In this document: piece by piece, positions 4,284 through 63,970 of the stretch | Layout: each line of letters opens with the position of its first letter | Numbering within the stretch: position 1 is the stretch's first letter | From: Candidatus Latescibacterota bacterium | Lineage (GTDB): Bacteria > Latescibacterota > UBA2968 > UBA8231 | NCBI GenBank assembly: GCA_965208105.1 | Contig: OZ242318.1 | Coordinates: 3,584,001-3,648,000, forward strand | Direction of reading: 5' to 3' | Length of the DNA stretch: 64,000 nt | The notes under the pieces: model-generated | What the model was told of the DNA's origin: nothing | Database searches by the model: none | What the model saw: only the letters and a program-made list of their open reading frames with translations | Program-made: the position numbers and the translations under genes

Positions 4284-4284
4284 C

Positions 4285-6105: not shown

Positions 6106-6228
6106 CTCCAAACTGTTGCCGATCACCTGATTTCCCCAACCTAGATTAGAGACTGGCACAATTCGCAGGGGAGGTCACTTCGGCAATTCCACGAAAATCT
6201 CGAAATCCAGGATGGGGGATGTAAGCCG

Positions 6229-6654
6229 ATGAATGAAGTAGCTCTCCGAAGAGACCTGCGGGAGGTGGATTGGGAGGCCTTGGCAAATATCTACTGTCGC
6301 GCTCCCCTGGGCACGCCTCATCCCGAGAAACTCCGTCGATCCTACGAAAATTGCGAGGTATGTTGTTTTGCCTTTTCGAATGATGAGCTGGTGGGAGCAG
6401 GAAGAGCAATTTCGGACGGGGAGACCTTTGCAACTGTTTGCGATCTTGTCGTTTCGCCTGACTTTCAACATCAGGGTATCGGTAGAGCCGTCCTGAGATC
6501 CATACTTCAGCAACTCGCTGTTCCCAAGGTGCTGCTTGCATGCATCCAGGGGCAGGAGGAATTTTATAGGAAGGAAGGATTCCTTAAACACAAGTCGGTC
6601 ATGGCGCTATACGAGAACCATGAATGGTTTGTTGCCAATGGCTATCTCGAATAG
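6229..6654 (+). CDS. GNAT-family N-acetyltransferase
   Basis: LVGAGRAISDG; motif A DLVVSPDFQHQGIG; FYRKEGF. GGGGGA RBS-like run upstream. Confidence 0.9.
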   Translation: MNEVALRRDLREVDWEALANIYCRAPLGTPHPEKLRRSYENCEVCCFAFSNDELVGAGRAISDGETFATVCDLVVSPDFQHQGIGRAVLRSILQQLAVPKVLLACIQGQEEFYRKEGFLKHKSVMALYENHEWFVANGYLE

Positions 6655-6824
6655 GGAGGTTTTCCACCAGGTCTTATCGGCTGGTGATTCGGAATTGGTT
6701 TCGTCCACTTCTTATAACCACAGGGTGTTGCGGAAGAGAGGCTACCCCGCCTTGGCTTTCGGCAATCTGCTTTGCGGTTTCGCAAACCGGTAACTCGACA
6801 GGTCGATTGCAGAAGTACCCTCCA

Positions 6825-7199
6825 ATGTCAAACTATTTTCGCATAGTGTCTGGCACGACTGGAATTTTCGAGGCCGTAACCCGGGATTGCCCATCGGATG
6901 ATCCTCGCCGTTCGGAAAAACCCGATGGGGCCTGGTTGCCCAAGGTCGGACTTCGGTTCGAGGGAGCCATTTCTTTCTGGACTGAAGCCGGGTTGAATCG
7001 CTATATGGAGTGCGGTTTGTTTCGTTGGCATGCCTCGGTAGTCCGTGACAGACCAACGGTGCTATGCGCTTCGATCCAGGGTCCAGCTCTATACTCCGAT
7101 CCCTACCAGGTTATATGCCATCCAAGGGCTGCCCACATTTTGTCCGAAACGGACTGGGAAGTTTTCCTCGCCCAGCGCAATGAGAAGCACAACACCTAA
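6825..7199 (+). CDS. hypothetical protein (~124 aa)
   Basis: ATG at 6825 lies in the 6624..7199 ORF. Protein-like composition (GAISFWTEAGL, LYSDPYQVI); no family recognised. Confidence 0.55.
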   Translation: MSNYFRIVSGTTGIFEAVTRDCPSDDPRRSEKPDGAWLPKVGLRFEGAISFWTEAGLNRYMECGLFRWHASVVRDRPTVLCASIQGPALYSDPYQVICHPRAAHILSETDWEVFLAQRNEKHNT

Positions 7200-7282
7200 C
7201 CGAACCGTTGCACGGCGGTGCATTCACAGCAGATTGCGCTTTGGAGTATGAAATCGAGCAACTTTTCCGAATGGACGCGTCA

Positions 7283-7473
7283 ATGATTCGGCGAAAGGCT
7301 GTACGAGCGGTCAATTTGACGCCGGATCACAGGGCATTGCTGATGAAGGTCCAAAAGCCTGTCACAGGATGCCAAGTTTGAATTACGCCCGGTGGAGGTC
7401 TGGAACCCGGAGAGTCTGGCGATGAAGTACTTCGACGCAAAGTCGCCGAAGAGACCGGCGCGGGGAACCTGGA
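7283..7473 (+). pseudogene. Nudix hydrolase remnant (not in the ORF track)
   Basis: Translates MIRRKAVRAVNLTPDHRALLMKVQKPVTGCQV*ITPGGGLEPGESGDEVLRRKVAEETG. This is a Nudix box GX5EX7REUXEEXG with RE changed to RK. TGA at 7379-7381 sits where the Trp of W-x-x-PGG is expected, and the resemblance ends shortly after the box. Confidence 0.8.
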
Positions 7474-7501
7474 CCCGGAAGACGATGAGACGTCTTCCGG
7501 G
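7474..7501. terminator. perfect 11-bp hairpin between convergent genes
   Basis: CCCGGAAGACG-atgaga-CGTCTTCCGGG. There is no U tract, so terminator function is uncertain. Confidence 0.4.
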
Positions 7502-7554
7502 CTCATTCGGCGGACCCGAGGGCAAAAGGATGCGGGGAGTACGGGGCCGGCTGC

Positions 7555-8844
7555 TTACGCAGAAAGCGCGTCCGGCCGGGGGCCGCCGGTGGCCCAGTCC
7601 AGCAGCTCCACCGTGTGCACCACAGGCTGCTCGATGCCGCGGCCGATCTGCTCCATGCAGCCGATATTGCCGGCGGCCACCAGCTGCGGCTCCACCGCGG
7701 CGATATTCTCGGCCTTGCGCTCCTGCAGCTGCGCGGCCATCTCCGGCCTGAGCAGGTTGTAGGTGCCGGCGCTGCCGCAGCACAGGTGGGCATCGGGCAC
7801 CTCGACCACCTCGAAGCCGGCCTGGCGCAGAAGTTCCCGGGGCTGGTCTTTGATTTTCTGGCCGTGCTGCAGGGAACAGGCGTCGTGATAGGCCACCCGC
7901 ATTCCGCCGGGGTTCTGCACTTCTCCCAGCCCCATCTCCGCCACTAACTCGGATACGTCCTTCACCAGGGAGGTGACCGCCCGGGCCCTATCGGCCCACT
8001 CGGGCTCGTTGCGGAAGATGTAGTCGTACTCCTTGACCGCGGTGCCGCAGCCGGAGGTGTTGAGCACGATGGCGTCCAGCCCTCCATCCTCGATCTCCCG
8101 GTGCCAGACTTCGATGTTGTTGCGCATCAGTCCCAGGCTGCGCCGGCGCTCGCCCATGTGGAAGGTGAGGGCGCCGCAGCAGCCCATTTGCGGGGGGACG
8201 ACCACCTCGATCCCCAGCCGGGTGAGCAGGCGCACGGTGGCGTCGTTGATCTGCGGGCCGAGGACCTGCTGGGCGCAGCCGGTGAGCAGGGCCACGCGCG
8301 CCCTGCGCCGTCCCTGCGGCGCGATACTTCCGGGGCGAGCCAGCCGGGCGGGAGGTGGCACCGCGGCGGGGGCCATGTCCAGGACGTGGCGCATGCCGGC
8401 GGGCACCAGGAAGCGGAGGGCACGGCCCGCCGCGGCCAGGCGCATGGCGAGACGGAAGCGCCACGGGTGGGGCATGAGGAGGGTGAGGGCGGCGCGCAGC
8501 AGGCGGTCGAGGAGGGGCCGCCTGTATTCCCCCTCGATTCGGGGACGCGCCTCCTCCAGCAGGTGGGAATAGGTGACGCCGCTGGGGCAGGTGGTCTCGC
8601 AGGCCAGGCAGCCGAGGCAGTTGTCGATGTGCTCGACGGTGTTGTCGGTGACCTCGATGGCCTCTTCGAGAATGTTCTTTATCAGGTAGATGCGCCCCCG
8701 CGGCCCCTCCAGCTCGTTGCCGGTGAGCAGGTAGGTGGGACAGGTGGCGTTGCAGAAGCCGCAGTGGACGCAGGTCCGCAGGATCTGTGCGGAGACTTGG
8801 ACATCGGGGTTCTGCAGCCGTTCGGGTGAAATGGATGTGCGCAT
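7555..8844 (-). CDS. glcF: glycolate oxidase iron-sulfur subunit
   Basis: CVHCGFCNATCPTY and CLGCLACETTCPSGV 4Fe-4S motifs; two CCG domains (GCCGAL, YHDACSLQHGQ...CCGSAGTYN). Confidence 0.93.
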   Translation of the reverse strand: MRTSISPERLQNPDVQVSAQILRTCVHCGFCNATCPTYLLTGNELEGPRGRIYLIKNILEEAIEVTDNTVEHIDNCLGCLACETTCPSGVTYSHLLEEARPRIEGEYRRPLLDRLLRAALTLLMPHPWRFRLAMRLAAAGRALRFLVPAGMRHVLDMAPAAVPPPARLARPGSIAPQGRRRARVALLTGCAQQVLGPQINDATVRLLTRLGIEVVVPPQMGCCGALTFHMGERRRSLGLMRNNIEVWHREIEDGGLDAIVLNTSGCGTAVKEYDYIFRNEPEWADRARAVTSLVKDVSELVAEMGLGEVQNPGGMRVAYHDACSLQHGQKIKDQPRELLRQAGFEVVEVPDAHLCCGSAGTYNLLRPEMAAQLQERKAENIAAVEPQLVAAGNIGCMEQIGRGIEQPVVHTVELLDWATGGPRPDALSA

Positions 8845-8892
8845 GGGCTGAATTGCCGCTTCAGGAGGCGGCGGGGTTCCGGCGCTTCCGCG

Positions 8893-9405
8893 TCAGTTAC
8901 GGGTCGATACCGTTCCAGGCGGCGCTGCCTCCGGGTGAGGGAGCGCTCCACCCAGCCACCGGGCCAGGGCCTTGTGCGGCGAGCGGATCTCTTCCATCGA
9001 GGTGAAATAGTGGTCTTCCCATCCCGCCTCGGGGAGACCGGTGAAGATCATCAGGTTCAGGGGATAGTGCTCGGAGTCGGTGCACCTCCGCAGGTCGTCC
9101 CTGAACAGGAATATCTGCTTCTCGAGGGCGATGGCCATCCCCAGCTCCACCATTACGCCTTCGTCCGGCGGGGTGCCGTTGACGACGGCGAAAATGGCGT
9201 CGCATGCCAGCAGGTCGCGCACATCGTCCTGGCCCACCCTGAAGGCCCAGCCTGCTTCGGTCACGTCTAGGGGGCTGTTGCGCGCGAAGGGTTCCCACAC
9301 CTCGGCGCCCATGTCCTCCAGGATCCGGACGAAGGGGGGAAGAAGGTTCTCCTTCTGCTGGGCCGAGAATCCGTAGGGGCTGGCCAGATATATTCTCTTT
9401 TTCAT
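8893..9405 (-). CDS. nucleoside 2-deoxyribosyltransferase family protein
   Basis: IYLASPYGFS; D-x-G-x3-E-x-G motif (PDEGVMVELGMA); LNLM near the C-terminus. Start set at MKKRIY. Confidence 0.85.
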   Translation of the reverse strand: MKKRIYLASPYGFSAQQKENLLPPFVRILEDMGAEVWEPFARNSPLDVTEAGWAFRVGQDDVRDLLACDAIFAVVNGTPPDEGVMVELGMAIALEKQIFLFRDDLRRCTDSEHYPLNLMIFTGLPEAGWEDHYFTSMEEIRSPHKALARWLGGALPHPEAAPPGTVSTRN

Positions 9406-9489
9406 ATGGCCCGATTTCCGCCATCTTCGGGGTGTATTACCTTCTCCCCTGATTCCAGCAAGCTCGAACGAGCGGGATAATCTAAAGGT

Positions 9490-10613
9490 ATGGTGGGAAA
9501 AAACAAGGCTGCCGGCCCTCCGTCCGCGCCGCCTGCGAACCTCGTCCGGGAGGATGTCCTCCTCGCCCCTCACACCACCCTGGGCGTGGAGGACGGGCCC
9601 GCTATTTCGCCGAGTGCGGCAGCACCGCGGAGGTCCGGGACTGCCTGGCCTGGGCCCGGGAACGGAAGCTGCAGGTGCAGGTAATGGGCGGAGGCAGCAA
9701 CATCCTCTTCGCCGACGAGGGATTCGACGGCCTCGTTCTGAAGGTGGCCCTGAGGGGGGTCGCCTATGCGGATCAGGGAGAGTGGATCCTGATGAGGTCC
9801 GGGGCGGGCGAGGACTGGGACCGCCTGGTGCGGGACTGCATCCGCCGCGGTCTGGGGGGAATCGAATGTCTTTCCGGCATTCCCGGCCTGGTAGGCGCGA
9901 CCCCGGTGCAGAACGTGGGCGCCTATGGCCAGGAGGTGAAGGAAACGGTGGTCAGGGTGGAGGCCATCGAGCGGGAGACTCTTGCGGAAGTGGCCTTCAC
10001 CAATGCGGAGTGCGGCTTCAGCTACCGGCAGAGCCGCTTCAAGAGCGAGGACCGGGACCGCCATATCATCACCATGGTCTCCTTCCGCCTTCGCGCCCGC
10101 GCCCGCGCCTGCTTGCGCTATCCCGAGCTGCAACGGCACGTCGAGGAAAGCGCGGATCTGGAGCACCTGGAGAGCGGGGCGCCGGTGCTCGGCGCCGTCC
10201 GCCGGGCGGTCCTCGAGCTGCGCCGGGGCAAGTCCATGGTGCTGGACCCGGCAGACCCGAACGCCCGCTCCGCCGGTTCATTCTTCCTCAATCCGGTCCT
10301 GAGCCGGGAAGAGTTCGGGCAATTCAAGAAACGCTGCATCGCCGCCGGCTGCGGCGGCGAAGTGCCCGTGTTCGAGACCTCCGAAGGCCTCAAGGTGGCG
10401 GCTGCCTGGCTGGTGGAGCGGGCGGGCTTCCACAAGAGCTATCGCCGCGGCGGGGTGGGAATCTCCTCCAACCACGCCCTGGCCCTGGTCAACAGGGGCG
10501 GGGGAAGCTGCCGCGAGCTGGTCGAACTTTCCGACGATATCCAGCGCCAGGTCTACGAGAAATTCGCCGTCCGCCTCGAGAGAGAGCCGGTGGTGGTCGA
10601 AGCATCCCGGTGA
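9490..10613 (+). CDS. murB: UDP-N-acetylenolpyruvoylglucosamine reductase with a single-base frameshift at ~9586-9590
   Basis: N-terminal LAPHTTLGV (9490 frame) continues as GRARYFAEC...GGGSNIL in the 9675 frame. GIPGLVGATPVQNVGAYG, YRQSRFK, SAGSFFLNP, HALALVN and LEREP are all MurB motifs. Confidence 0.92.
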
Positions 10614-52316: not shown

Positions 52317-53186
52317 CTAGTGCCCCCCGTGGGACTCCATCCCGTGCTCGTGATGGACGGCGCTGGATTCCACGTAGTAGAGCACGTAGGCCAGGGCGAT
52401 TCCCAAAAGGAGGGATATGATGAGCTTGCCGCGGTCGTGGCCGTGGAATTGGATCTCGGGCAGCAGGTCGCTCAGGGCGATGCAGAGGAAGGCTCCGGCG
52501 GCAAAGGACAGCACGTAGCCGACTATCGCTCCATGTTCCGGACCCAGCAGCTCCACCCCCGTGAAACTAGCCAGGGCTACCAGGGGACAGAGCATGGCGA
52601 AGCCGACGTTGGCCGCGGTGCGGGACCGGGGGCTGTGTCCGGCGGACTTCATCATGCCGATGATGGAGTAGGCGTCGAGGGGCTTGTGCAGCAGTATGGC
52701 GAGGAATACCCCCAGCCCGACCAGCACCACTTCGTCGGAATGGGGCGGGCCAATCTGCATGCTGGTACCCAGGGCGATCCCTTCGGTCACGGTATGCACC
52801 CCGAGGCCGAGGACGACGCCTACCAGGCTGCGCGAATGGACGACGGAACCGCCGTGGTCGCGCCGGTCGTAGAGATCCTTGGCCTCGGCGCTGAAGTCGT
52901 GCTGGTGGTACTGAAAGATGCGCAGCAGAAAAATCATGAGGACCATGCCGAACACCATCCATCCAACCACTTTCTCTATGATTGCAGGTCCGGTAAGGCG
53001 ATCGATGCTGTGGGGCAGAAGGTGAAACATGGCGATGCCGAGGATGAAACCGGCCACGAGGCTCATGACCACCTGGGTGCGGGTGTGGGTCATGTTGCCC
53101 ATGGCCGCCAGTTTGCCGCCGCCGATGGAGACGGCGAAGATGGCGGCGCAATAGGCGAGCAAGACCAGAAAAGTATGTATGTCCAT
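52317..53186 (-). CDS. ZIP-family metal transporter
   Basis: FHLLPH, His loop YHQHD, VHTVTEGIALG, LLHKPLD, AAGAFL..ALSDLLPE; His-rich tail HHEHGMESHGGH. Confidence 0.92.
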   Translation of the reverse strand: MDIHTFLVLLAYCAAIFAVSIGGGKLAAMGNMTHTRTQVVMSLVAGFILGIAMFHLLPHSIDRLTGPAIIEKVVGWMVFGMVLMIFLLRIFQYHQHDFSAEAKDLYDRRDHGGSVVHSRSLVGVVLGLGVHTVTEGIALGTSMQIGPPHSDEVVLVGLGVFLAILLHKPLDAYSIIGMMKSAGHSPRSRTAANVGFAMLCPLVALASFTGVELLGPEHGAIVGYVLSFAAGAFLCIALSDLLPEIQFHGHDRGKLIISLLLGIALAYVLYYVESSAVHHEHGMESHGGH

Positions 53187-53292
53187 GATGGCCGTGATCA
53201 AAAACTACGTGGGATAGCGGTCGTCCCCCGGATGGGAGGGAAGGAAGAGCGCGCCAGGAGCGAAGAAGCTGGTCTCGGCAAGGGATTTCCGC

Positions 53293-53781
53293 TCAGAAGA
53301 ACAGCATCAACAGCACGATGCTGCTCAGCCCGCCGAGCATGAACCCCGCGGTGCTGACGACGCCCGAGGCCATGGAGAAGTCGGCGATGCGGAAGGTCTG
53401 GGGCCCGATGGTGAACATCACCTGGGAGCGGTCGATCTCCCCCTCGACGAATCCCTTCAGGCCCTCCTCGGCGCTGTGAGCCTCCTTGACAGAGACCAGG
53501 GCTACGAGAATCATGGTCATGGCCGAGGCCAGGGTCCCGATCGCGAACATGAGCAGCGTAGCCAGGGCGAACCAGTGGTAGGCGGCGTCCTCGTTCCCCG
53601 ACGAGGAGCTCATGAACCCGATGATCAACGCCGCACCGCCCGCATTGCCGAGCAGCAGCAACCGGGCGGACTCGGTGATCAGCCTGAACATGGTGCCGCG
53701 GCGCATGGCGACGACTTTGTAGAGCTCTCGCAGCCACTCTTCACCGGTTTCTTCGCCGGAAAATTCATCCACCTTTTTCAA
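53293..53781 (-). CDS. small membrane protein of unknown function (three hydrophobic helices)
   Basis: TTG start 3 nt after the upstream stop, with GGAGG RBS; LLLGNAGGAAL motif. Confidence 0.75.
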   Translation of the reverse strand: MKKVDEFSGEETGEEWLRELYKVVAMRRGTMFRLITESARLLLLGNAGGAALIIGFMSSSSGNEDAAYHWFALATLLMFAIGTLASAMTMILVALVSVKEAHSAEEGLKGFVEGEIDRSQVMFTIGPQTFRIADFSMASGVVSTAGFMLGGLSSIVLLMLFF

Positions 53782-53784
53782 TGG

Positions 53785-54900
53785 CTAATTTCCTCCGAGA
53801 TCGGTCAGCCTGATGTAGCTCGAACCCGTATTGGTGCCGGGCTCGAATTCGAGAGTCCAATCGTCGATCGCCACCGGCCCGGACGCCAGGGCCTGATCCA
53901 TGAAATTCTGGCGCGTCAGCTGGTCGCCCATGCGCTCCAGCACGGCTATGACGAAGCGGCCCAGAATGTAACCTTCGAGGGACACCTCGTTGATGGTGTA
54001 ATCCGCCGTCTCCGTCCCCGCCGCCGCGGACTCGAGAGCTCGTTGGAAACTCCGCACAACCGGCCTGCTGGTGTCGTCGGCGTCGGGCATCACCTCGGTG
54101 ACCAGGATCCGGTCGTTGGGCTCTGTGACCTCCTTCTTGAGCTCGTAGGACAGGACGAAGGACAGGTTGGCGATTATGTACTGGTGGCCAAGGGAATGCG
54201 CCAGGTTGATGATCTCCGCGTTGGCGGCGTAGGCTCCGACGATGAGGATGGCGTCCAGGTCGGCCTTGGCCAGGGCGAAGAGGCTCGCCTGGACGGCGTG
54301 GGTGTTGCGCGAGAAGGCGGTCTTCGCCAGAATGGGGACGCCGTGTCCGTCGAGAACCGTCTTGTAGTTTCTCAGGACGGAACGGCCGAAGGCGTCGTCC
54401 TGGTAGATGATCCCGAAGCGGTTCTTGCCGCGCTCCTGCAGGATGTGCTCCACCAGCAACCGGGTCTCGTCGAAATAGCCCGCCCTCAGGTTGATGACGT
54501 TGGGGAAGCGCTTGGTGTTGCGCAGGAAATCGGCGCCGGTGAAGGGTCCGACGAAAGGAATCCCCGCCGTCCTCAGCACGGGGGCGATGCGCTTGGCGGT
54601 CGGCGTCCCCACCCCGCCGATGACGGCCAGCACCTCGTTCTCGGCGGCGAAGCGTTCGGCGTTGGCCGCGGCCTGCTCGGGCTCGTAGGCGTCGTCGAGG
54701 GATACCAGCTCCAGCGGCCTGCCGTTCACCCCGCCGCGCGCGTTGCACTCGCGGAAGGCCGCCTCGATCCCCGCCCGGTAGTTGAACCCCAGGCGCTCGT
54801 TCGGCCCGGAGAAACAGGCACTCTGGCCGAACACCACGGCCTCCGCGGCGGCCGTGGAGACCGCGGCCGAGAGCACGAGGAGGAAGGAGGCCAGCAGCAT
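53785..54900 (-). CDS. type 1 periplasmic binding protein (LivK-like fold) with no adjacent ABC genes
   Basis: Signal peptide; FGQSACFSGP, GGVNGR, LDDAYEP, VGTPT, NLRAGY..E, YQDDAFG, SLEGY. ATG 1 nt after the previous stop. Confidence 0.88.
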   Translation of the reverse strand: MLLASFLLVLSAAVSTAAAEAVVFGQSACFSGPNERLGFNYRAGIEAAFRECNARGGVNGRPLELVSLDDAYEPEQAAANAERFAAENEVLAVIGGVGTPTAKRIAPVLRTAGIPFVGPFTGADFLRNTKRFPNVINLRAGYFDETRLLVEHILQERGKNRFGIIYQDDAFGRSVLRNYKTVLDGHGVPILAKTAFSRNTHAVQASLFALAKADLDAILIVGAYAANAEIINLAHSLGHQYIIANLSFVLSYELKKEVTEPNDRILVTEVMPDADDTSRPVVRSFQRALESAAAGTETADYTINEVSLEGYILGRFVIAVLERMGDQLTRQNFMDQALASGPVAIDDWTLEFEPGTNTGSSYIRLTDLGGN

Positions 54901-54901
54901 G

Positions 54902-56245
54902 CTAATTACCCTTGCCACCGGCTTTCGCTTTCTTTTCGGCGCCAACTGTTTTCTCCTTCTTCGCGCCGCCGCCTTCCTTCTTTTTCTTCTCCCCGGTTGC
55001 CAGGTTCTCGATCATCGGCTTTTCGTCGGCCTCCTGGCCCACGGGCTTGCCGCTCACGTGGCGGTGGGAGAAGATGGACGGGGTGTCGAAGATGAGCGAC
55101 CGCGGGTTGGCGATGCTCATGTGGTCCCGTTCGGCGCGGGTCTGATGGAACTGGCCGTCGAGCAGGAGCTTGTCGGCATGGATGCTTTCGATGGCGTGCA
55201 CGTTCTGCATGGTGGCCGTCGAGAGCAGGGGCCTGTCTTCGATTTTTTCACTGGTGGGAGGTGCTTCCAGCGCCATGTGCGCCGGGGTGAACCCGCCCGC
55301 TCCGTCGATCATGTTGATGTCGATGGCCGACTGGTTGCCCGGATTGACCGCCGCCAGGCTGGCCTCCGCAAAGATCTTGCGCATCCGGTCCCAGTAGCGC
55401 GTGATTCCCACGTGGGCGGGCTGTTTGCGGTATTCGGCCAAAAGCGCCGAGAAGGCTCCGGCGGTGCTCTTCGCCTGTACCACGCGCTCCCTGGCCTTGG
55501 CCTTGGCGTTGATCACCATGGCCTTGGCCTGTCCACGGCTGTGGGCGATGAGCTGCTCCCTTTTGCGGTTGGCGTCGCTCACCGCCTTGACGCGGTCGGC
55601 GAAGGCGTCGCTCACGTCCCGGAAGGCGGCGATGGTTTCCTCGATGGGGCGCACGTCGAGGATGTCGAGGGAGACCAGCTCAATCCCGATGTCGCGGGAG
55701 GCGAGGCGCTCGGTGATCCGCTCGAACAGTTTGCTTTGAATGATGTTTCGATTCGAGGTGAGGATCAGGTCGATGAAGTTCTGCCCCAGGATATTGACCA
55801 GCTCCTCCCTGGAGATCATGGTCACCATGGCGAGGGGGTCGGAGGTGACGAACAGGTAGTTCCTCAGGTTGTCGACCTTGTACTGGAGGGCCACGTCCAC
55901 TTCGAGCAGGTTCACGTCTCCCGAAAGGATGGTGAAGTTGACGGAATCGCCCTCCTTGCTGGAAACCTGGTGGCGGATGATGCGCTTGACCTTGTGGACG
56001 TAGGTCTTCTCGATGACGGGAATGCAGTAGTGGATGCCGGGCCCGATGTTGGCGTCCACCACCCGGCCGAAGCGGGTGCGAACGCCCTGCTCCTCTTTCT
56101 TGACGACGTAGAACCCGCTGGCCAAAAACCCGGCGACGACGGCTGCGGTGACCGATTGCAGGATGCGCCGGTGGTGCTTGCCGAGGAAGTCGAATGCGGC
56201 GTAGATGACCCGCGTGCTGGGCGGCAATGACTGTCGTTCGCTCAT
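54902..56245 (-). CDS. HflK-like SPFH (band 7) protein with a long C-terminal extension
   Basis: One TM helix; SGFYVV..EEQGVRTRFG, PGIHY, LSGDVN, AFRDV; coiled coil; YWD.M. About 130 extra C-terminal residues. Confidence 0.88.
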   Translation of the reverse strand: MSERQSLPPSTRVIYAAFDFLGKHHRRILQSVTAAVVAGFLASGFYVVKKEEQGVRTRFGRVVDANIGPGIHYCIPVIEKTYVHKVKRIIRHQVSSKEGDSVNFTILSGDVNLLEVDVALQYKVDNLRNYLFVTSDPLAMVTMISREELVNILGQNFIDLILTSNRNIIQSKLFERITERLASRDIGIELVSLDILDVRPIEETIAAFRDVSDAFADRVKAVSDANRKREQLIAHSRGQAKAMVINAKAKARERVVQAKSTAGAFSALLAEYRKQPAHVGITRYWDRMRKIFAEASLAAVNPGNQSAIDINMIDGAGGFTPAHMALEAPPTSEKIEDRPLLSTATMQNVHAIESIHADKLLLDGQFHQTRAERDHMSIANPRSLIFDTPSIFSHRHVSGKPVGQEADEKPMIENLATGEKKKKEGGGAKKEKTVGAEKKAKAGGKGN

Positions 56246-56266
56246 TTCAGGCGGACTCCCCAATTG

Positions 56267-57154
56267 TCAGGGCCTTGCCTTGGTGTCGAGATACTTGAAA
56301 AGCTCGTTGTCGGCCGGCAGCATGAGGGTGGTGTTGCGATCGATTATGAGGTCGTAGCTGTCGAGGGCGCGGACGAACTTGTAGAACTCCGGATCCTTGC
56401 GGTAGGCCTTGCCCAGCAGGGCCATGGCCTCGGCCTCGGCCTCGCCCAGAATGGCGGTGGCCTCGGCGTGGGCGTCGGCGATCAGCTTCTCGTGCTCGTT
56501 GATGGCCAGGGCCTCGATGCGCAGGGCCATCTCCTCGCCCTCGCTGCGATAGCGGGCGGCGATGCGCGCGCGCTCGGCGATCATGCGGCGGATGACGCTG
56601 GGCCGGTTCTCCACCGGCAGGGTGTACTCGACGATCCCCGCCTCCATTACCTCGATCCCGTAGCTCTCCCTGGCGACGGGGGCGATTCTGGCGAGAATCG
56701 CCCGGGAGGCCTCGTTGAGGTCCTCGTGCTCCAGCCCCAGTCCGATGAAGGCGTCGAGGGACTTGTTGCTGATGATGATTCCGCTGCTGGAAAGGTAGAG
56801 GTCCTGCAGCCGCTCCACCGCGCTCTGGCCGGTGCGGATCGCCTCGACGAAGAGAATGGGGTCCACGGTGCGCCAGAGCAGGTAGCCGTCGACGAGGATG
56901 CTCTTCTGGTCTTCGGTGATCAGCTCGTGGGGGATTCCGGTCAGGGTGTGAATGCGGCGGTCGACCTTGTAGATCTTCGAAATGGGGCGCGGCCACTTCA
57001 GGTGAAACCCGGGCTGCCGCACGGGGGGAGAAATCTTGCCGAAGTGAGTCAACACCCCCTGCTGGGTCTCGTTGACGATGTAAAAACTGTCGTAGGCGAT
57101 GGCGGCGGCGATGGCGATGATGGCCGCGGTGATCGTCTTTCTCTTCAGCTTCAT
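56267..57154 (-). CDS. HflC-like SPFH (band 7) protein
   Basis: FYIVNETQQGVLTHFG, PGFHLK.P, RMIAERAR.A...RSEG, G.AEA, DPEFYKF.R.L..Y. Confidence 0.92.
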   Translation of the reverse strand: MKLKRKTITAAIIAIAAAIAYDSFYIVNETQQGVLTHFGKISPPVRQPGFHLKWPRPISKIYKVDRRIHTLTGIPHELITEDQKSILVDGYLLWRTVDPILFVEAIRTGQSAVERLQDLYLSSSGIIISNKSLDAFIGLGLEHEDLNEASRAILARIAPVARESYGIEVMEAGIVEYTLPVENRPSVIRRMIAERARIAARYRSEGEEMALRIEALAINEHEKLIADAHAEATAILGEAEAEAMALLGKAYRKDPEFYKFVRALDSYDLIIDRNTTLMLPADNELFKYLDTKARP

Positions 57155-59445
57155 TGCCCTTTACTCCCGTGGTGTCGGTCCCCGCCGGCCGCCCGGGCAT
57201 TGCTCTTCTTCCACAGGGCGACCTTCTCGAGGCTCTTCTTGTTGGGCACGATGATCTTGGGGTTGCCGGCCAGGGCGGTCTCCAGCTTCTCCCGCCACAG
57301 CATGTTGCGCAGGACCCCGGGGGCGCTGCGCACGGCGTCGGACACGAGGGAGATGGCCTCGGCCTCGGCCGCCGAGGTCTTCACCTTCCGGTAGGCCTCG
57401 CCCTCCGCCTGCTCCACCTCCCACTCGGCGTTGCCGTGCGCCTGGGGGATCAGGGCTACCAGGAAGCGCTGGGCGTTGACGATGATCCGCTCGCGGTCCT
57501 CCTGGGCGCTCGATACGTCCCGGAAGGCGCTGACCGTCTCGGCCACCGGCTTGATTTCCAGCAGGTTCACCTTGACCAGGTCCACGGTCCTGAGCACCGG
57601 GTTCTCCAGGTGGATGTCGGAGGCGAAGGACTCGGTGATGTGCTCTTCCAGGGTTACGCGATGGACGTTGAGCAGTTGTTCCAGATCCCGGGCGGACACG
57701 AAGGAACGCAGGTGGGCCTTGACCACGTCCGTTATGATCTTCTCCGGGCTGGTGGTGCGGTAATGATACTCGTAGGGGTCCTCGACCCGGTACTGCACGT
57801 TGACGGTGAGGGTGAGGAGGTTGAGGTCTCCGGACACGTAGTCGTGGGGGGCGTCGCTCATTATGGACTTCACCTCCCGCACCGGCCACTTGTCCACCTG
57901 GACGAAGGGCCGGGGGGCGAGGTAGTGCAGGCCGGGCTGCAGGTCGCGCCAGTGGACCTTGCCGAAGAGCAGGCCATAGCCCACCGATCCGGGAGGCACG
58001 GTGGTGAAGCCGCTACCCAGAAACAGGACCAGGGCCAGGGCCCAGAGGATCAGCCCCAAGGGCGCGGCGGGAGAGACGACGCCCCAGGCCGAACGGCTGC
58101 GGGTCAGACGGCGCCAGGTCCGGCGCCAGGGCCGGGACAGAGGCCGGAGATTGAGCAACAGGTCCTCCCAGCCGCTGCGCATGGCCCCGGCGCGGAAGCG
58201 CCAGACGATAAGGGCGATGAGGACAAAGGCGCCTCCCCATTGCATGAACTGCAGGGTGGGCGAGTCCGAGGCGACGAGATTCACCGAGATGCTCAGGCCG
58301 GCGGCGAGGAGCAGAATGTCGATCAGGATGCCGAGGGCGGCGGTGACCGCGATGACCGCGGTGACGTAGATGGAAGCGAAGCGGGCGCCGAACTGGCTGA
58401 CGATGATGGCGATGGTTCCCGTGTTGGTGGCCGGACCGGTCATGAGAAAGATCAGCGCCGCGCCCGGGCTGACCCCCTTGGCCACCAGGGCGGCGGCGAT
58501 GGGGGTGCTGGCGGATGCGCAGATGTAGAGCGGAATGCCGATGAGCACCATGACGGGATAGGCCAGCCAGCGGGCGTACTCGTGGGCCATCAGGTCGCCG
58601 GGGATGACCAGGAAGAGCACTCCTCCCAGGGCCACTCCCACCAGCAGGGCGAAGAGGATGTCGTCGGCAATCTCGACGAAACCGTAGCGGAAGATGTGCT
58701 TGACGACCCGCCTGAAGTCCAGCTCCGGGTGGTCGGCCGGGGCGGCGGAGGAATCGTCCGCTGCGCCCTGCGCGGCAAGGGACTCGCGGTAGAAGTCCGG
58801 CTTCACCCAGGATGTGGTCTTCCAGCGGCCGGCCGCCAATGCGACTGCCTTCAACCAGTGAACGGTGAGCCTCTTCAGCATCGAGGGGCTGACGTAGCAG
58901 TCGTCACTGTCGGCGATGAGAGCCTCATGGCCGTGGTCGTGATTGTGGTCGTGATCATGGTCGTGTTCGTCATGCTCATGGCCGTGATCGTCATGGCCGG
59001 CCTCTGATTCGTCCCCTTTTCTGATGAGGCCGATGCAGAAGATGCCGGCGACGACCGCGGTGATGAAGCTGATCACGGGCCGCACGATGGCGACGACCCA
59101 TCCGAAGAAGGCGTTGGTGACCAGGATGGAGTCGGCCCCTGTTTCAGGGGCGGTTATGAGAAAGGACATGCAGGAGGAACGGGAGGCGCCCTTGCGGCGC
59201 ATCTCGGCAACCACCGGAACCACGGAGCAGCTGCACAGGGGCACCGGTACGCCGATGGCCGAGCTCATGCTGACCGACTTCAGGCTGTCTTCGCGGAGCC
59301 AGCGCAGAATGGCCTGGCGGGATATGAATACATGGATCAGGCCGGAGAGGAACAGCCCCAGAAGCAGCATGGGGGCCAGCAGCAGGAAGGACGACCAGAG
59401 GAAATCGAAGAACCTGGTGAATATGTCAAGGAAGCTCAGGGCCAA
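57151..59445 (-). CDS. DUF318/ArsP-type (SO_0444-like) metal permease with a His-rich loop, fused to a C-terminal HflK-like SPFH domain
   Basis: Permease motifs PLCSCSVVP, FLITAPETG, PLYICASASTPIA and GPATN; 11 His in 23 residues (58927-58995). Then a TM helix and HflK motifs SGFTTV, PGLHY, SGDLN and AFRDV.SA.ED.ER. Single uninterrupted ORF; GGAGG RBS before the TTG start. Confidence 0.9.
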   Translation of the reverse strand: MALSFLDIFTRFFDFLWSSFLLLAPMLLLGLFLSGLIHVFISRQAILRWLREDSLKSVSMSSAIGVPVPLCSCSVVPVVAEMRRKGASRSSCMSFLITAPETGADSILVTNAFFGWVVAIVRPVISFITAVVAGIFCIGLIRKGDESEAGHDDHGHEHDEHDHDHDHNHDHGHEALIADSDDCYVSPSMLKRLTVHWLKAVALAAGRWKTTSWVKPDFYRESLAAQGAADDSSAAPADHPELDFRRVVKHIFRYGFVEIADDILFALLVGVALGGVLFLVIPGDLMAHEYARWLAYPVMVLIGIPLYICASASTPIAAALVAKGVSPGAALIFLMTGPATNTGTIAIIVSQFGARFASIYVTAVIAVTAALGILIDILLLAAGLSISVNLVASDSPTLQFMQWGGAFVLIALIVWRFRAGAMRSGWEDLLLNLRPLSRPWRRTWRRLTRSRSAWGVVSPAAPLGLILWALALVLFLGSGFTTVPPGSVGYGLLFGKVHWRDLQPGLHYLAPRPFVQVDKWPVREVKSIMSDAPHDYVSGDLNLLTLTVNVQYRVEDPYEYHYRTTSPEKIITDVVKAHLRSFVSARDLEQLLNVHRVTLEEHITESFASDIHLENPVLRTVDLVKVNLLEIKPVAETVSAFRDVSSAQEDRERIIVNAQRFLVALIPQAHGNAEWEVEQAEGEAYRKVKTSAAEAEAISLVSDAVRSAPGVLRNMLWREKLETALAGNPKIIVPNKKSLEKVALWKKSNARAAGGDRHHGSKGQ

Positions 59446-59499
59446 TCAGCGACCTCCAGTTAAAAAAGCCAATCGAAGCTGCAACTGACTGTTGGGCAA

Positions 59500-59590
59500 C
59501 CAAATGAATTCCAATGTTACAGAAGTATTAGAGACCAGTTAATATAGTTAACTATTGTTGTTTATACCGTCTTTTTTTCGTGAAGAAATT
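59500..59590 (-). promoter_or_regulatory. AT-rich promoter region with a 12-bp perfect palindrome (candidate metalloregulator site)
   Basis: ATAGTTAACTAT at 59544-59555, overlapping the direct repeat AGTTAA-tat-AGTTAA (59537-59551). Strongly AT-rich against GC-rich flanks. Confidence 0.5.
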
Positions 59591-59611
59591 ACAAGTCGAT
59601 GGCGCCGGAGC

Positions 59612-62600
59612 CTATGGCGCCGCGTCCCGGTCCACCTCCACCGCAAACCACTTGTAGAGCGCCGGCAGCACCAGCAAGGTCAGCACGGTGGAGCTGACCA
59701 GGCCGCCGACCACCACCGTCGCCAGAGGCCGTTGCACCTCGCTGCCGGTGCCGGTGGAGAACAGCAGGGGGATCAGCCCCAGGGCGGTAGTCAGGGCGGT
59801 CATGAGCACCGGCCTCACCCGCAGGCACGCCCCCCGGACCGAGACTTCGTCCAAGTCCACCCCCTCGCGGACGAGCTGGTTGAAGTAGGTCACCATCACC
59901 ATGCTGTTCCCCAGGGCGATGCCGAACAGGGCGATGAAACCCACTGAGGACGGCACCGAGAGGTTCTGCCCGGTCAGCCACAGGGCAACCACACCGCCCA
60001 CCAGCGCCAGGGGAATGTTGAGCAGGATCAGCACCGCGTTCTTGAGCGAATTGAAGCTGGAGAACAGCAGCAGGAAGAGGGCGAACAGGGTGATGGGAAC
60101 GACGATGGCGAGGCGCCTGTTGGCCTCCTGCTGCAGGCGGAACTGGCCGCCCCAGGTCACCAGGTAGCCCGGCGGCAGCGCCACCTGTCCGGCGATGGCC
60201 TCCCGGGCCTCGCGGACGAAGGATCCCATGTCGCGGCCGCTGACGTTGCACTGGACGGTGATGAAGCGCTGGCTCTTCTCGCGGGTGATCTGGCGGGGGC
60301 CCACCACCTCCTCGATGCGGGCTAGTTGAGCCAGGGGGATCTGGAGGCCCATGGGGGACTGGACCAGGATCTGGGCGATGGCCTCGGGGCTGCTGCGGAA
60401 CCGGGGGGCGAAGCGCACCAGGATATCGAAGCGCCGGGTCCCTTCGAACACCTGACCCACCAGCTCGCCGCCGACCGCCGCCTGCACCACCTCCTGGACG
60501 TCGGCCACGTTGATGCCGTAGCGGGCGATGGCCTGGCGGTCGACCCCGATGAGCAGCTGGGGGGTGCCGCTGATCTGGTCCACCTGGACGTCGGCCGCTC
60601 CGGCTACCCCGCCGACCACCTGGGCGATTTCGTCGGCCTTGAGCTTGAGCACGTCGAGGTCGTCCCCGAAGAGCTTGACGGCCAGCTCGGCCCGCACTCC
60701 TTCCAAAAGCTCGTCCACGGTCATGGCGATGGGCTGGGTGAAGTTGGTCAGCACCCCGGGTATGTCCCCGAGCTCGGCGCGGACGAACTCGCGCAGCTCT
60801 TCCTGGCTGCCGGCGTTGCGCCACCGGTCCCTGGGCTCGAGCAGGAGAAACATCTCGGCGCTGTTGATGGGGTCGGTGTGGGCGCCCACTTCGCCGCGGC
60901 CGATGCGCGATACCGCGCCGGAAATTTCGGGGATCCGCAGCAGTCGCCGTTCCACCAGCATGGTGATCCGGGTGCTCTCCTCCAGGGATATGGAAGGGGC
61001 CATGGTCAGGCGCAGGACCATGGTGCCCTCCTGCAGGGCGGGCGTGAACTCCGACCCCAGGCGCGGGAAGATCACCATCCCGATAAGAAGGAGGATCCCC
61101 GCCGATCCCAGGGCCCAGAAGCGGTGGGCCACGAAGCGGGCGACCAGGGGCCGGTATGCGGCCACCAGCCGCCGCGTCATCCAGCTTTCCCCGGGGGGTG
61201 TGCCGTCATTGCCTGGCTTTGGCGGGCGCAGCACCAGGTTCGACAGTACCGGGGCCAGAAAGAGGGCGAAAACCAGGGAGCCCAGCATGGCCATGGCCAC
61301 GGTGTAGGCCAGGGGGCGGAAGGTCTTGCCCTCGACTCCCTGGAGAGTGAACAGGGGCAGGAACACGAGAATGATGATGAGGATGGCGAATACGATTGGA
61401 CGTCCCACCTCCACGCAGGCGCGGGCAACGGCCCTGCCGCGCTCCTCCTCCGCCTGCGGCTGGCGCAGCGCGCGGTCCACGTTCTCCACCACGACGATGG
61501 TGCCGTCCACCATCATGCCGATGGCGATGGCCAGGCCGCCGAGGGACATGAGGTTGGCCGAGAGGCCGAAGTAGTTCATCCCCAGGGTGGCGAACAACAC
61601 GGAAAAGGGAATGGACAGGGCGACCACAAGGCTGGGGCGGACGCTGCCCATGAAGAGGATGAGCACCAGGGTGACCAGGACGATGCCCTGCACCAGGGCA
61701 TCGGTGACGGTCTTGACGCAGGCGGCCACCAGGGTCTTCTGCTCGTAGTATGGCACCAGCCGCACCCCCTCGGGCAGGATGCTGTTGATCTCCTCCATCC
61801 TGGCCTCGACCCGCTCGATGACGGTGGAGGAGTTGGTGCCGAAGAGCTTTATCACCATGCCCGCCACCACCTCCTCCACTCCGTTGCGGGTCTGCACCCC
61901 GCGGCGGATGGCTCCGCCGATGCCCACCCGGGCAACCTGGTCGAGGAAGACGGGGGTCCCGTCGACGGCCTTGATCACGATGTTCTCGATGTCCTCCACG
62001 GTGGAGGCCAGGCCCACGGAGCGCACCACGTATTCCTCGGCGTCCTTCTCGATGAACTGGGCGCCGACGTTGAGATTGTTGGCCTCGATCTGGGCGATGA
62101 CGTCGCGCAGGGTCACCCCGTAGCGCAGCAGGGCATGGGGGTCCACCACCACCTGGAACTGCTTCTCGTGGCCGCCGATGCCGAGGATTTCAGTGACTCC
62201 GGGAACGGTCTGCAGATGGAACTTGACCAGCCAGTCCTGGATGGTGCGCAGCTCTTCGAGGGAGTAGTTGCCGGAGCTGTCCTCCAGGTAGTAGAAGAGG
62301 ACCAGGCCCATGCCCGTGGAAATAGGTCCCAGCGCCGGCTCGCCGAAGCCTTCGGGTATCTGTTCCCAGGCCTCGTGGAGGCGTTCGCTCACCAGTTGGC
62401 GGGCGAAGTAGATGTCCACCTCGTCGGCGAAGTAGATGTTGACCACCGAGAGGCCGAAGTTGGAGACGGAGCGGATGTTCTCGATGCCCGGCAGGCCGTT
62501 CATCACCGTCTCGATGGGGTAGGTGACGTAGGTTTCGATCTCTTCGGGAGCCAGACCTTCGGTGACGGTGAATACCTGGACCAGGTTGGGCGAGACGTCG

Positions 62601-62719
62601 GGGAAGGCGTCCACCGGAAGCTGGCGGTAGCTGAAATAGCCGCTGGCCACCACCACCGCTCCCAGGACCAGCATGAGCATGCGGTTGCGCAGGGCCAGGT
62701 GAACGACGCGCTCGATCAT
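59612..62719 (-). CDS. czcA: CzcA/CusA-family heavy-metal RND efflux permease
   Basis: LPVDAFPDVS, ARQLV.ERL, ANLMSLGG, EGKTFRPLA, RVRPVLMTA, GSEVQRPLATVVVGG. Confidence 0.93.
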   Translation of the reverse strand: MIERVVHLALRNRMLMLVLGAVVVASGYFSYRQLPVDAFPDVSPNLVQVFTVTEGLAPEEIETYVTYPIETVMNGLPGIENIRSVSNFGLSVVNIYFADEVDIYFARQLVSERLHEAWEQIPEGFGEPALGPISTGMGLVLFYYLEDSSGNYSLEELRTIQDWLVKFHLQTVPGVTEILGIGGHEKQFQVVVDPHALLRYGVTLRDVIAQIEANNLNVGAQFIEKDAEEYVVRSVGLASTVEDIENIVIKAVDGTPVFLDQVARVGIGGAIRRGVQTRNGVEEVVAGMVIKLFGTNSSTVIERVEARMEEINSILPEGVRLVPYYEQKTLVAACVKTVTDALVQGIVLVTLVLILFMGSVRPSLVVALSIPFSVLFATLGMNYFGLSANLMSLGGLAIAIGMMVDGTIVVVENVDRALRQPQAEEERGRAVARACVEVGRPIVFAILIIILVFLPLFTLQGVEGKTFRPLAYTVAMAMLGSLVFALFLAPVLSNLVLRPPKPGNDGTPPGESWMTRRLVAAYRPLVARFVAHRFWALGSAGILLLIGMVIFPRLGSEFTPALQEGTMVLRLTMAPSISLEESTRITMLVERRLLRIPEISGAVSRIGRGEVGAHTDPINSAEMFLLLEPRDRWRNAGSQEELREFVRAELGDIPGVLTNFTQPIAMTVDELLEGVRAELAVKLFGDDLDVLKLKADEIAQVVGGVAGAADVQVDQISGTPQLLIGVDRQAIARYGINVADVQEVVQAAVGGELVGQVFEGTRRFDILVRFAPRFRSSPEAIAQILVQSPMGLQIPLAQLARIEEVVGPRQITREKSQRFITVQCNVSGRDMGSFVREAREAIAGQVALPPGYLVTWGGQFRLQQEANRRLAIVVPITLFALFLLLFSSFNSLKNAVLILLNIPLALVGGVVALWLTGQNLSVPSSVGFIALFGIALGNSMVMVTYFNQLVREGVDLDEVSVRGACLRVRPVLMTALTTALGLIPLLFSTGTGSEVQRPLATVVVGGLVSSTVLTLLVLPALYKWFAVEVDRDAAP

Positions 62720-62740: not shown

Positions 62741-63970
62741 TCAGTGCGAGTGGCCGTCTCCGAAAGCCCCTTTGGCCAACTGGGATTTGAGGATGAAGGC
62801 GCCGCGGGCGACGTAGGACTGCCCCGGCTCCAGACCGGCGACAATCTCGGAGTGGGTGGAGTTGCTGCGGCCGACGCGGACGGGGTGGGGAACGAATCCT
62901 TCGCCGGTTTCGACGAAGACCACGGCATGATCATCGATGGTCTGAACGGCCGATCCCGGCACCAGGACGGGCACCTGGACCGCATCCCCCGAGATGGTCG
63001 CGGTGACGAAGGAACCTGGACGCCAGCGGCCCTCCGGGTTGCGCAGCTCGATGCGCACCGGGGCGGTGCGGGTGGCCTCGTCCACGATGGGGCTGATGTA
63101 GTCCACCGAAGCCGTGGTCGACGGGCCACCCTGCCCGGCCTCGATGTGCACGGTCTGGCCGACGCGCAGGAAGGGCAGGTCCTTCTGGTAGGCGGTCAAC
63201 ATCACCCACACCGAGCGCAGGTCGGCCACCACGAAGGCCTCTGAGTCTTCCTGCAGGACCTCGCCCCGGACGATGTGCTTGCTGATGACGGTGCCTGAAA
63301 GGGGAGCCGTCATCGGGTAGCGGGTGAAGCGCTCGCCGTCTTCGAAGGACAGCCCGGCCAGGTAGTCGCCGGAAAATCCCAGGGACTGCAGCTTCTGCTC
63401 GGCCGCCTGCAGCTCGATGAGAGCCTCGGCCAGTCCGTTCCTGGCCTCCTGGAACTGCCGCTCCGAGGAGATGGACTGGTCCCAAAGCGATTTCTCCCGC
63501 TCGAAGGTGGCTCGCGCAAGCTCCAGCCGCTCCCGGGAAACAAGGTAGGCCGATTTCAGCTCCGACAGCTCGGGGCTGTCGAGCACCGCCAGGACCTGGC
63601 CTCGCTGCACCGGGTCGCCGATATTGGCGTGGATATCCCGGGCAACCCCCCCAATCCGGGGAACGATGTGGGCCACCAGATCGGGATTGACCTGCACCTC
63701 GCCGGGGGTATGAATCTGAACCGCCAGGCGGCCGGCGGCGGCCTCTGCGACCTCGATGCCGAACTCGGTCCGTTCCGCGGCGCTCAGGCGAATTCCCTCC
63801 TCGGGGTCCTTCCCTCCTTCTCCGGCGTGACCTTCCTCCTCGTGGTGGCCCCCCTCCTCCGCCCAGGCCGGACCTTCCAGGAAAGAAACGGCAGCACGCT
63901 CTCCCGGGGCCGAAAGAGCCGTCTGCAATGCGATGAATCCCAGGACCGCGATGTGGACTCGCATTCTCAT
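62741..63970 (-). CDS. czcB: CzcB-family periplasmic adaptor (membrane fusion protein)
   Basis: His/Glu-rich N-terminus (GHHEEEGH), IVPRIGG, APLSGTV, VADL..VWV, VDEATRT; C-terminus GDGHSH. Confidence 0.9.
   Translation of the reverse strand: MRMRVHIAVLGFIALQTALSAPGERAAVSFLEGPAWAEEGGHHEEEGHAGEGGKDPEEGIRLSAAERTEFGIEVAEAAAGRLAVQIHTPGEVQVNPDLVAHIVPRIGGVARDIHANIGDPVQRGQVLAVLDSPELSELKSAYLVSRERLELARATFEREKSLWDQSISSERQFQEARNGLAEALIELQAAEQKLQSLGFSGDYLAGLSFEDGERFTRYPMTAPLSGTVISKHIVRGEVLQEDSEAFVVADLRSVWVMLTAYQKDLPFLRVGQTVHIEAGQGGPSTTASVDYISPIVDEATRTAPVRIELRNPEGRWRPGSFVTATISGDAVQVPVLVPGSAVQTIDDHAVVFVETGEGFVPHPVRVGRSNSTHSEIVAGLEPGQSYVARGAFILKSQLAKGAFGDGHSH

Follow-up and report, generated by a model that had tools for sequence, protein, structure and literature searches.

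Outside the HflK/HflC-FtsH complex and the prohibitin-protease pairs, the functions and clients of SPFH cages are largely open. The SO_0444 family of metal permeases is represented by a model of 351 positions, and its members are thus normally stand-alone proteins. SO_0444 of Shewanella oneidensis is reported to be required for growth in ZnSO4 or CuCl2 stress and is encoded beside a ZntR-like regulator; the mutant phenotype and this neighbour are the basis of its annotation as a Cu/Zn efflux protein (PMC3219624). Here we describe a gene in which a permease of this family is continuous with an HflK-like SPFH domain. It is located in a 64,000 nucleotide stretch of DNA, hereafter the window, from Candidatus Latescibacterota bacterium (assembly GCA_965208105.1, contig OZ242318.1, positions 3,584,001 to 3,648,000 of the forward strand). 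The fusion gene (57151..59445, on the negative strand, as are all window features described below) is a single open reading frame of 764 amino acids. It opens a unit that continues with an HflC-like gene (HflC2), a second HflK-like gene (HflK2), a periplasmic binding protein and a 162 amino acid membrane protein (mem162).

The best reading of this unit, and a somewhat probable one, would be a dedicated HflK/C-type ring with a covalently tethered metal exporter. Both domains of the fusion are known already, and the two-domain architecture is visible automatically in databases. The fusion itself appears unstudied. Literature searches, which did not cover supplements, found no paper on the fusion or the operon, and a text search in the principal review on how prokaryotic SPFH proteins evolved (PMC2636767) gave no mention of permeases, transporters or fused forms. 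The database name "SO_0444 family Cu/Zn efflux transporter", used alone, conceals half of the protein.

The fusion gene

In brief, the protein consists of an SO_0444-type permease, a linker, a transmembrane helix and an HflK-like SPFH and coiled-coil part. The start codon is TTG, with GGAGG located 7 nucleotides upstream. Residues 10-376 (58318..59418) match ArsP_1 (PF03773, Pfam E 9e-45), and the fusion is the sole ArsP_1 gene in the whole genome. Residues 17-415 align with positions 2-349 of the 351 in the NCBIfam model NF033936 (SO_0444 Cu/Zn efflux) with 324.5 bits, passing the cut-off of 300. No chain among the solved structures matched the permease part.

Conservation was assessed by aligning 65 fused homologues. 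The C71-S72-C73 motif (59227..59235) is invariant; Cys-Ser-Cys is described as the most conserved motif of the SO_0444 family (10.1101/2022.07.06.499078). The central loop, residues 145-253, contains 14 His and harbors a His/Asp-rich run, H151-H173 (58927..58995), that varies in length between strains, while H169, H171 and H173 are invariant. The second half of the permease carries an equally invariant Y307-I308-C309 motif (58519..58527).

A conserved Arg/Trp-rich linker, residues 419-455 (58081..58191), predicted to be helical, joins the permease to the second part of the protein; invariant positions in the linker region are W415, R416, G420, A421, G425, D428 and N432. It is followed by an HflK-type transmembrane helix, residues 456-474 (58024..58080), an SPFH/Band_7 domain (PF01145), residues 482-659 (57469..58002, Pfam E 2.6e-15), and an HflK-like coiled-coil and C-terminal region, residues 660-738 (57232..57468). 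Residues 468-738 align with residues 85-348 of E. coli HflK (7vhp_E, E 4e-21), through the full coiled-coil region. All parts that the preliminary description had assigned to the protein, from the Cys-Ser-Cys motif, the His-rich loop and Tyr-Ile-Cys to the Arg/Trp linker, the transmembrane helix and the SPFH domain with its coiled coil, were thus located.

The stretch 396-452 contains 11 Lys and Arg and 2 Asp and Glu, and is directly followed by the hydrophobic helix 456-474. By the positive-inside rule this charge difference places the linker in the cytoplasm and the SPFH part in the periplasm. The fusion would then have the topology of HflK, with the N-terminal side of the transmembrane helix in the cytoplasm and the C-terminal side outside.

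The preliminary description took the join to be genuine and informative. Contigs assembled from public runs were aligned to positions 56900-59500 of the window, taking nucleotides 58008-58203 as the linker. A contig from run X1, which may be the source sample, covers 57865-58405 and crosses the linker with 0 differences and 0 gaps. Contigs from runs X8 (56900-58182) and X5 (58069-58414) show 29 and 8 substitutions, respectively, and both have 0 gaps. A stop or an indel in the linker was looked for in the DNA contigs of these three runs and none was found; the indels and joints listed are confined to 58809-59045, the region of the variable His-rich loop. The runs with near-identical sequence carry sponge or marine metagenome labels.

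The homologues give the same picture. A search in which 8000 candidates were scored gave 2188 proteins at E <= 1e-3, and the best 120 were considered. According to precomputed Pfam matches, PF03773 and PF01145 occur together in 116 of these 120 (62-92% identity, 728-892 amino acids), so the two domains are not always encoded by separate genes. The other four list PF03773 alone, yet span 97-99% of the query. None of the permease-only loci examined has an adjacent SPFH gene. The gap-free linker contigs and the two-domain homologues support the claim and indicate a conserved gene rather than an assembly error; a sequencing artefact or a read-through of two genes is excluded by the same data.

A five-gene module and its spread

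The start of HflC2 (56267..57154, 295 amino acids) overlaps the stop of the fusion gene by 4 nucleotides, and its product passes TIGR01932 (154 bits, cut-off 134.4). HflK2 (54902..56263) encodes 453 amino acids. It is followed by the LivJ-like binding protein of the Peripla_BP_6 family (53785..54945), which has an N-terminal signal-like hydrophobic segment, and by mem162 (53293..53781), a protein with three long helices that belongs to no named family. A ZIP-family transporter identified by Pfam (52317..53201) is a frequent sixth gene.

Synteny was examined by tblastn of the window proteins against the loci of relatives. A scan of genome contigs gave 36 fusion-bearing loci, and in 31 of these HflC2, HflK2, the binding protein and mem162 are present with order and strand kept; the other five reach a contig edge. 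A second scan, anchored on mem162, gave 140 relatives, of which the best 80 loci were examined. The core is contiguous in 67 of these, one (L109) has HflC2 in two pieces, nine are truncated at a contig end and three are decayed (L083, L122 and L137). Among these best 80 of 140 loci mem162 was never seen outside the module. The two scans together hold 88 distinct fused genes. All four partners follow in order in 81 of these, six loci are cut by contig ends (L036, L045, L052, L053, L054 and L101) and one (L122) lacks HflC2. Across 36 modules the gene junctions are mostly overlaps of -4 or -1 nucleotides, and ZIP follows the module in 49 of the 79 strictly complete modules. Judged from gene order and junctions, the module is a tight operon.

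Some loci depart from this layout. In the Opitutales-titled locus L122 (4562-6806) the fusion, with SPFH residues 2-301, is separated by 47 nucleotides from HflK2, with no HflC-like gene in between. Two of the loci L083-L161 have a second, convergent copy of the fusion, HflC and HflK genes past mem162. Ten of the same loci encode a divergent second Peripla_BP_6 paralogue downstream on the opposite strand (approximately 40% identity in L109).

Of five Band_7 genes in the genome, three belong to the module and two form a separate HflK/HflC pair (332 and 285 amino acids) at 0.43 Mb. In blastp comparisons the fused SPFH part is closest to HflK2 (32% identity, 105 bits), followed by the other HflK (26%, 91.7 bits), and gives 33-39 bits with either HflC. 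HflC2 is nearest to the other HflC of the genome (36% identity, 173 bits). These scores make two of the module's subunits K-type and the third C-type.

These partners bear on an alternative in which the SPFH part is a local appendage that regulates the permease or targets it to lipid microdomains, in the way of a stomatin on a channel, and forms no closed hetero-oligomeric cage. In its favour, SPFH proteins that modulate transporters and organise microdomains have been reported (PMC13724742). Against it stand the strict co-inheritance of the fusion with one HflC-type and one more HflK-type gene, their translational coupling, and the alignment of the whole coiled-coil region with HflK to residue 348. 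We consider it very unlikely.

HflK2 has a C-terminal extension past the HflK core (approximately residues 310-400) that is partly conserved, including H356, H372, Arg and an RSLIFD motif; its Lys-rich tail is not conserved. By homology, this C-terminal region (approximately residues 310-453; window 54902-55400) would occupy the apex of a dome of the HflK/C type.

Three long helices are seen in the structural model of mem162, which is confident (predicted local distance difference test, pLDDT, 82.1). A Foldseek search with this model against PDB gave nothing at E <= 0.001. Against Pfam, at E up to 10, mem162 gave a chance-level match to KCH and no family, NfeD included, and its relatives in Atlas are found in unnamed clusters only. 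Complex prediction of residues 1-480 of the fusion with mem162 gave an ipSAE interface score of 0.00 twice, which counts neither for nor against binding.

Among 41 related genomes, including the genome of the window (G000), the full fusion is found in five (G000, G031, G034, G036 and G037). Nine encode a close permease only (G016, G025, G029, G032, G033, G035, G039, G001 and G040). The permease of G001, which is of the same genus, is 84% identical over residues 1-440 in tblastn (87% in a separate genome comparison). In this genome (L011, 8552-10101) the permease directly abuts residues 86-162 of mem162, followed by ZIP. In G040 (L019, 8943-10733) the permease and the first 89 SPFH residues run directly into residues 229-312 of the binding protein, and a similar scar is found in L137 (6409-8486), where the permease abuts a fragment of HflK2. 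These scars indicate that the SPFH part and the four partners were lost as one block in a single step.

A quick tree of the permease domain, with 69 rows (40 fused and 29 unfused), shows fused and unfused permeases interleaved, requiring at least 6-7 changes. The window protein is sister to the unfused protein of G001 (SH-aLRT 98). This interleaving and the loss scars refute the view that the fusion arose once and that every unfused form is ancestral. The branching also departs from the organism labels; for example, a Bryobacterales row stands beside a Pseudomonadales row (support 99).

Complete modules carry at least nine phylum labels in total: Pseudomonadota (28), Latescibacterota (17), Gemmatimonadota (6), Acidobacteriota (5), Verrucomicrobiota (4), Binatota (2), and Spirochaetota, Nitrospinota and Myxococcota (1 each), with further bins unlabelled. 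Several modules are located on single-chromosome assemblies, so mis-binning is no explanation for this spread. The module has likely spread by horizontal transfer of the cassette, and is gained as well as lost in one block. It should be noted that several Latescibacterota-titled genomes (L062-L066) have, close to ZIP genes, two unfused permease copies on opposite strands within approximately 6 kbp of each other.

Other fused exporters, metal and direction

The SPFH part alone (310 amino acids) was searched against 1.84 billion cluster representatives, giving 3620 matches at E <= 1e-3. Among the best 150 matches, 58 proteins of at least 500 amino acids with the match at the C-terminal end were scanned with Pfam; the 92 shorter ones were left out. 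Band_7 was found in 57 of the 58, ArsP_1 in 35, Cation_efflux in 16, HAD hydrolase in 6 and E1-E2_ATPase in 4. All four proteins scanned with Cation_efflux at the N-terminal end (P0157, P0162, P0194 and P0252) pass the cut-off for the cation diffusion facilitator (CDF) family. Likewise, the three scanned ATPase fusions (P0199, P0206 and P0235; 1011-1027 amino acids) all pass the cut-off for heavy-metal P1B-ATPases (535-611 bits, cut-off 346). The SPFH part of the scanned CDF and P1B-ATPase fusions passes the HflK cut-off. HflK-type domains have thus been joined to metal exporters of three unrelated families.

All three CDF-HflK loci (L162-L164, approximately 3000-9700 in each) come from metagenome-assembled genomes titled Planctomycetota or Victivallaceae, and in each the fusion is followed by an HflC-like and then a second HflK-like gene. 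Neither the binding protein nor mem162 was found in these loci. Upstream of the CDF-HflK gene they encode a 662-690 amino acid protein with two peptidyl-prolyl isomerase (rotamase) domains. A scan of genome contigs with P0235 gave ordinary ATPases matching residues 1 to approximately 680 only, and no locus with a fused P1B-ATPase. As judged from these loci, the trio of exporter-HflK, HflC and free HflK is a recurrent design.

The genes surrounding the module point to zinc. In the window, the same-strand neighbour upstream of the fusion is a CzcA-type RND pump (59612..62719), followed by a CusB/CzcB-type membrane-fusion protein (62741..63970), both identified by Pfam; an OEP gene is located just beyond the window (L081, 968-2611). 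Within 4.5 kb of the module in 35 other loci we found genes for a ZnuC-like ABC ATPase (13 loci), ZnuA (12), an ABC-3/ZnuB-like protein (9) and ZIP (12), and further for an RND pump (8), OEP (8), a membrane-fusion protein (6) and a FUR-family regulator (4). Because zinc genes recur among these neighbours, zinc is our best guess for the transported metal, and we infer that the unit works in zinc homeostasis.

The direction of transport may be read in another way. The permease could be a binding-protein-dependent importer, in which the binding protein, mem162 and the permease take up zinc or a zinc chelate in a TRAP- or TTT-like layout, expressed in zinc shortage, and the SPFH ring scaffolds the system or keeps the binding protein near. 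In favour of such an importer, the module always includes a binding protein and a small membrane protein, and it often has ZnuABC, ZIP and FUR-family genes close by. The Zn/Cu sensitivity reported for SO_0444 points to export (PMC3219624), and the same HflK fusion is found on CDF and P1B-ATPase proteins, which are known exporter families. Furthermore, the binding protein belongs to Peripla_BP_6 and not to the DctP/TctC type, and no metal ligands are conserved in it. The permease-only loci examined have neither this protein nor mem162, and CzcCBA is located directly upstream in the window. An importer is therefore unlikely, and we retain the tethered exporter as the preferred reading.

The intergenic region between czcA and the fusion (59446..59611) is AT-rich in a genome of approximately 65% GC. 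It contains a perfect palindrome, ATAGTTAACTAT, and a weak hairpin with a T-run just before the ribosome-binding site of the fusion. These elements may act as an operator or attenuator, and are not shared with the other loci. A scan for sigma-70 promoters and terminators gave results at chance level.

A putative ring and its relation to known systems

Based on these observations, we suggest that a Cu/Zn-type export permease, most likely for zinc, continues via a conserved cytoplasmic linker and one transmembrane helix into a periplasmic HflK-type SPFH/coiled-coil subunit. Together with HflC2 and HflK2 the fusion would form a dedicated ring or dome at the inner membrane, on its periplasmic side, distinct from that of the housekeeping HflK/C pair of the genome. 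The exporter would be held permanently at the ring wall through the approximately 37-residue cytoplasmic helix and the HflK transmembrane helix, and the binding protein and mem162 would be members of the same unit. Such a ring might confine the exported metal, serve its hand-off in the periplasm, or control the lateral lipid and protein surroundings of the pump. The permease could lie on the inner or the outer side of the ring.

A ring of this type could instead serve proteolytic control, recruiting FtsH as HflK/C does in E. coli, so that the exporter is held in a protease cage and its abundance tuned fast. The nearest solved relative of the SPFH part is the HflK of the HflK/C-FtsH complex, the genome encodes two ftsH genes, and the SPFH part of the CDF- and P1B-fused forms passes the HflK equivalog cut-off. 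With the module at 3.64 Mb and these ftsH genes at 0.35 and 1.39 Mb, the distance exceeds 2 Mb for both, and no ftsH was seen in the module flanks. The genome also retains its separate HflK/HflC pair, the HflK-type SPFH proteins of the module score under the HflK cut-off, and the binding protein and mem162 would be left without a role. We regard proteolytic control as rather improbable.

Several points weigh against the tethered exporter in a dedicated ring. On the side of the ring, residues 487-738 of the fusion score 139 bits and HflK2 144.5 bits against the HflK equivalog TIGR01933, both below the cut-off of 159.4. The AlphaFold2 model of the whole fusion, made with the 65 homologues, is poor (pLDDT 56.3, predicted template modelling score 0.42); its quality was too low for a fold search and only the layout of the secondary structure was taken from it. 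The preliminary description saw the permease as a structural part of the cage, a role that is suggested by the homology to HflK/C and the strict co-inheritance with the HflC- and HflK-like genes. Run X18, an RNA library in which DNA carry-over is possible, gave contigs at 56937-57646 and 58206-58834 and none over 57683-58204, which includes the junction.

On the side of the metal, the binding protein resembles LivJ-type proteins (4kv7_A, E 1e-44) and matches only Peripla_BP_6, ANF_receptor and Peripla_BP_5 in Pfam. As it has no conserved Cys and a single conserved His, its ligand appears to be a small molecule rather than a metal. The neighbouring genes mix importers (ZnuABC, ZIP) and Zur-like regulators with exporters, which would fit either direction, and metal excess as well as shortage. 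Among 82 distinct 400 nucleotide regions upstream of fusions, no palindrome with 6-mer arms is shared by more than three, and thus no common operator was found. The topology, the assembly of the ring, the metal and its direction, and the benefit of the ring to the pump are put forward here as predictions.

We speculate further that ArsP-type, CDF and P1B-ATPase exporters have repeatedly been covalently wired into a three-paralogue HflK/HflC ring that encloses a private area of the membrane and periplasm as a chamber. Zinc would be pumped into this chamber and passed to the enclosed binding protein and mem162 with no diffusion away, and the free HflK would dilute the fused one and thereby set the number of pumps per ring. 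Taken as a whole this proposal is improbable. For one of its parts, the role of the free HflK in setting the permease number, which the preliminary description had also suggested, the recurrence of the trio with a CDF exporter in all three loci adds some weight.

If correct, the tethered exporter would mean that evolution here labels a client by fusing it to a cage subunit, and does so in three unrelated families of metal exporters. The fixed set of partners in a mobile module found under at least nine phylum labels would make a system of five defined proteins accessible to cryo-EM and genetics. The resulting prediction, that SPFH scaffolds are linked to the trafficking of metal, probably zinc, is directly testable.

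TRAP and TTT systems combine a periplasmic binding protein (DctP or TctC) with a small membrane protein and a large permease (DctQM or TctAB). The module resembles them in its gene set, and differs in having a Peripla_BP_6 binding protein and an ArsP_1 permease; no homology to them emerged from the Pfam searches. QmcA-like operons of the stomatin type encode NfeD-type partners. They resemble the module in pairing an SPFH gene with one for a small membrane protein, but the match of the SPFH part to QmcA (8z5g, E 6.5e-9) is weaker than that to HflK (4e-21).

Like SO_0444, the fusion passes the family cut-off, has the invariant Cys-Ser-Cys and occurs in a zinc/copper gene setting; in contrast to this stand-alone permease of approximately 350 amino acids, it is extended by the SPFH part to 764. 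The CDF-HflK and P1B-ATPase-HflK proteins share the arrangement of an N-terminal metal exporter and a C-terminal HflK-like SPFH part, whereas their transporter folds are unrelated and their SPFH part, unlike that of the module, passes the HflK cut-off. With E. coli HflK/HflC-FtsH (PDB 7vhp, 7wi3, 9cz1 and 9cz2) the module shares the order of transmembrane helix, SPFH domain and coiled coil, an adjacent HflC-type partner that passes TIGR01932 and, as predicted here, the topology with the N-terminus inside and the C-terminus outside. It differs in having two HflK-type genes and one HflC-type gene, an added binding protein and mem162, and no ftsH near, and in that a whole metal permease takes the place of the cytoplasmic N-terminal tail of HflK.

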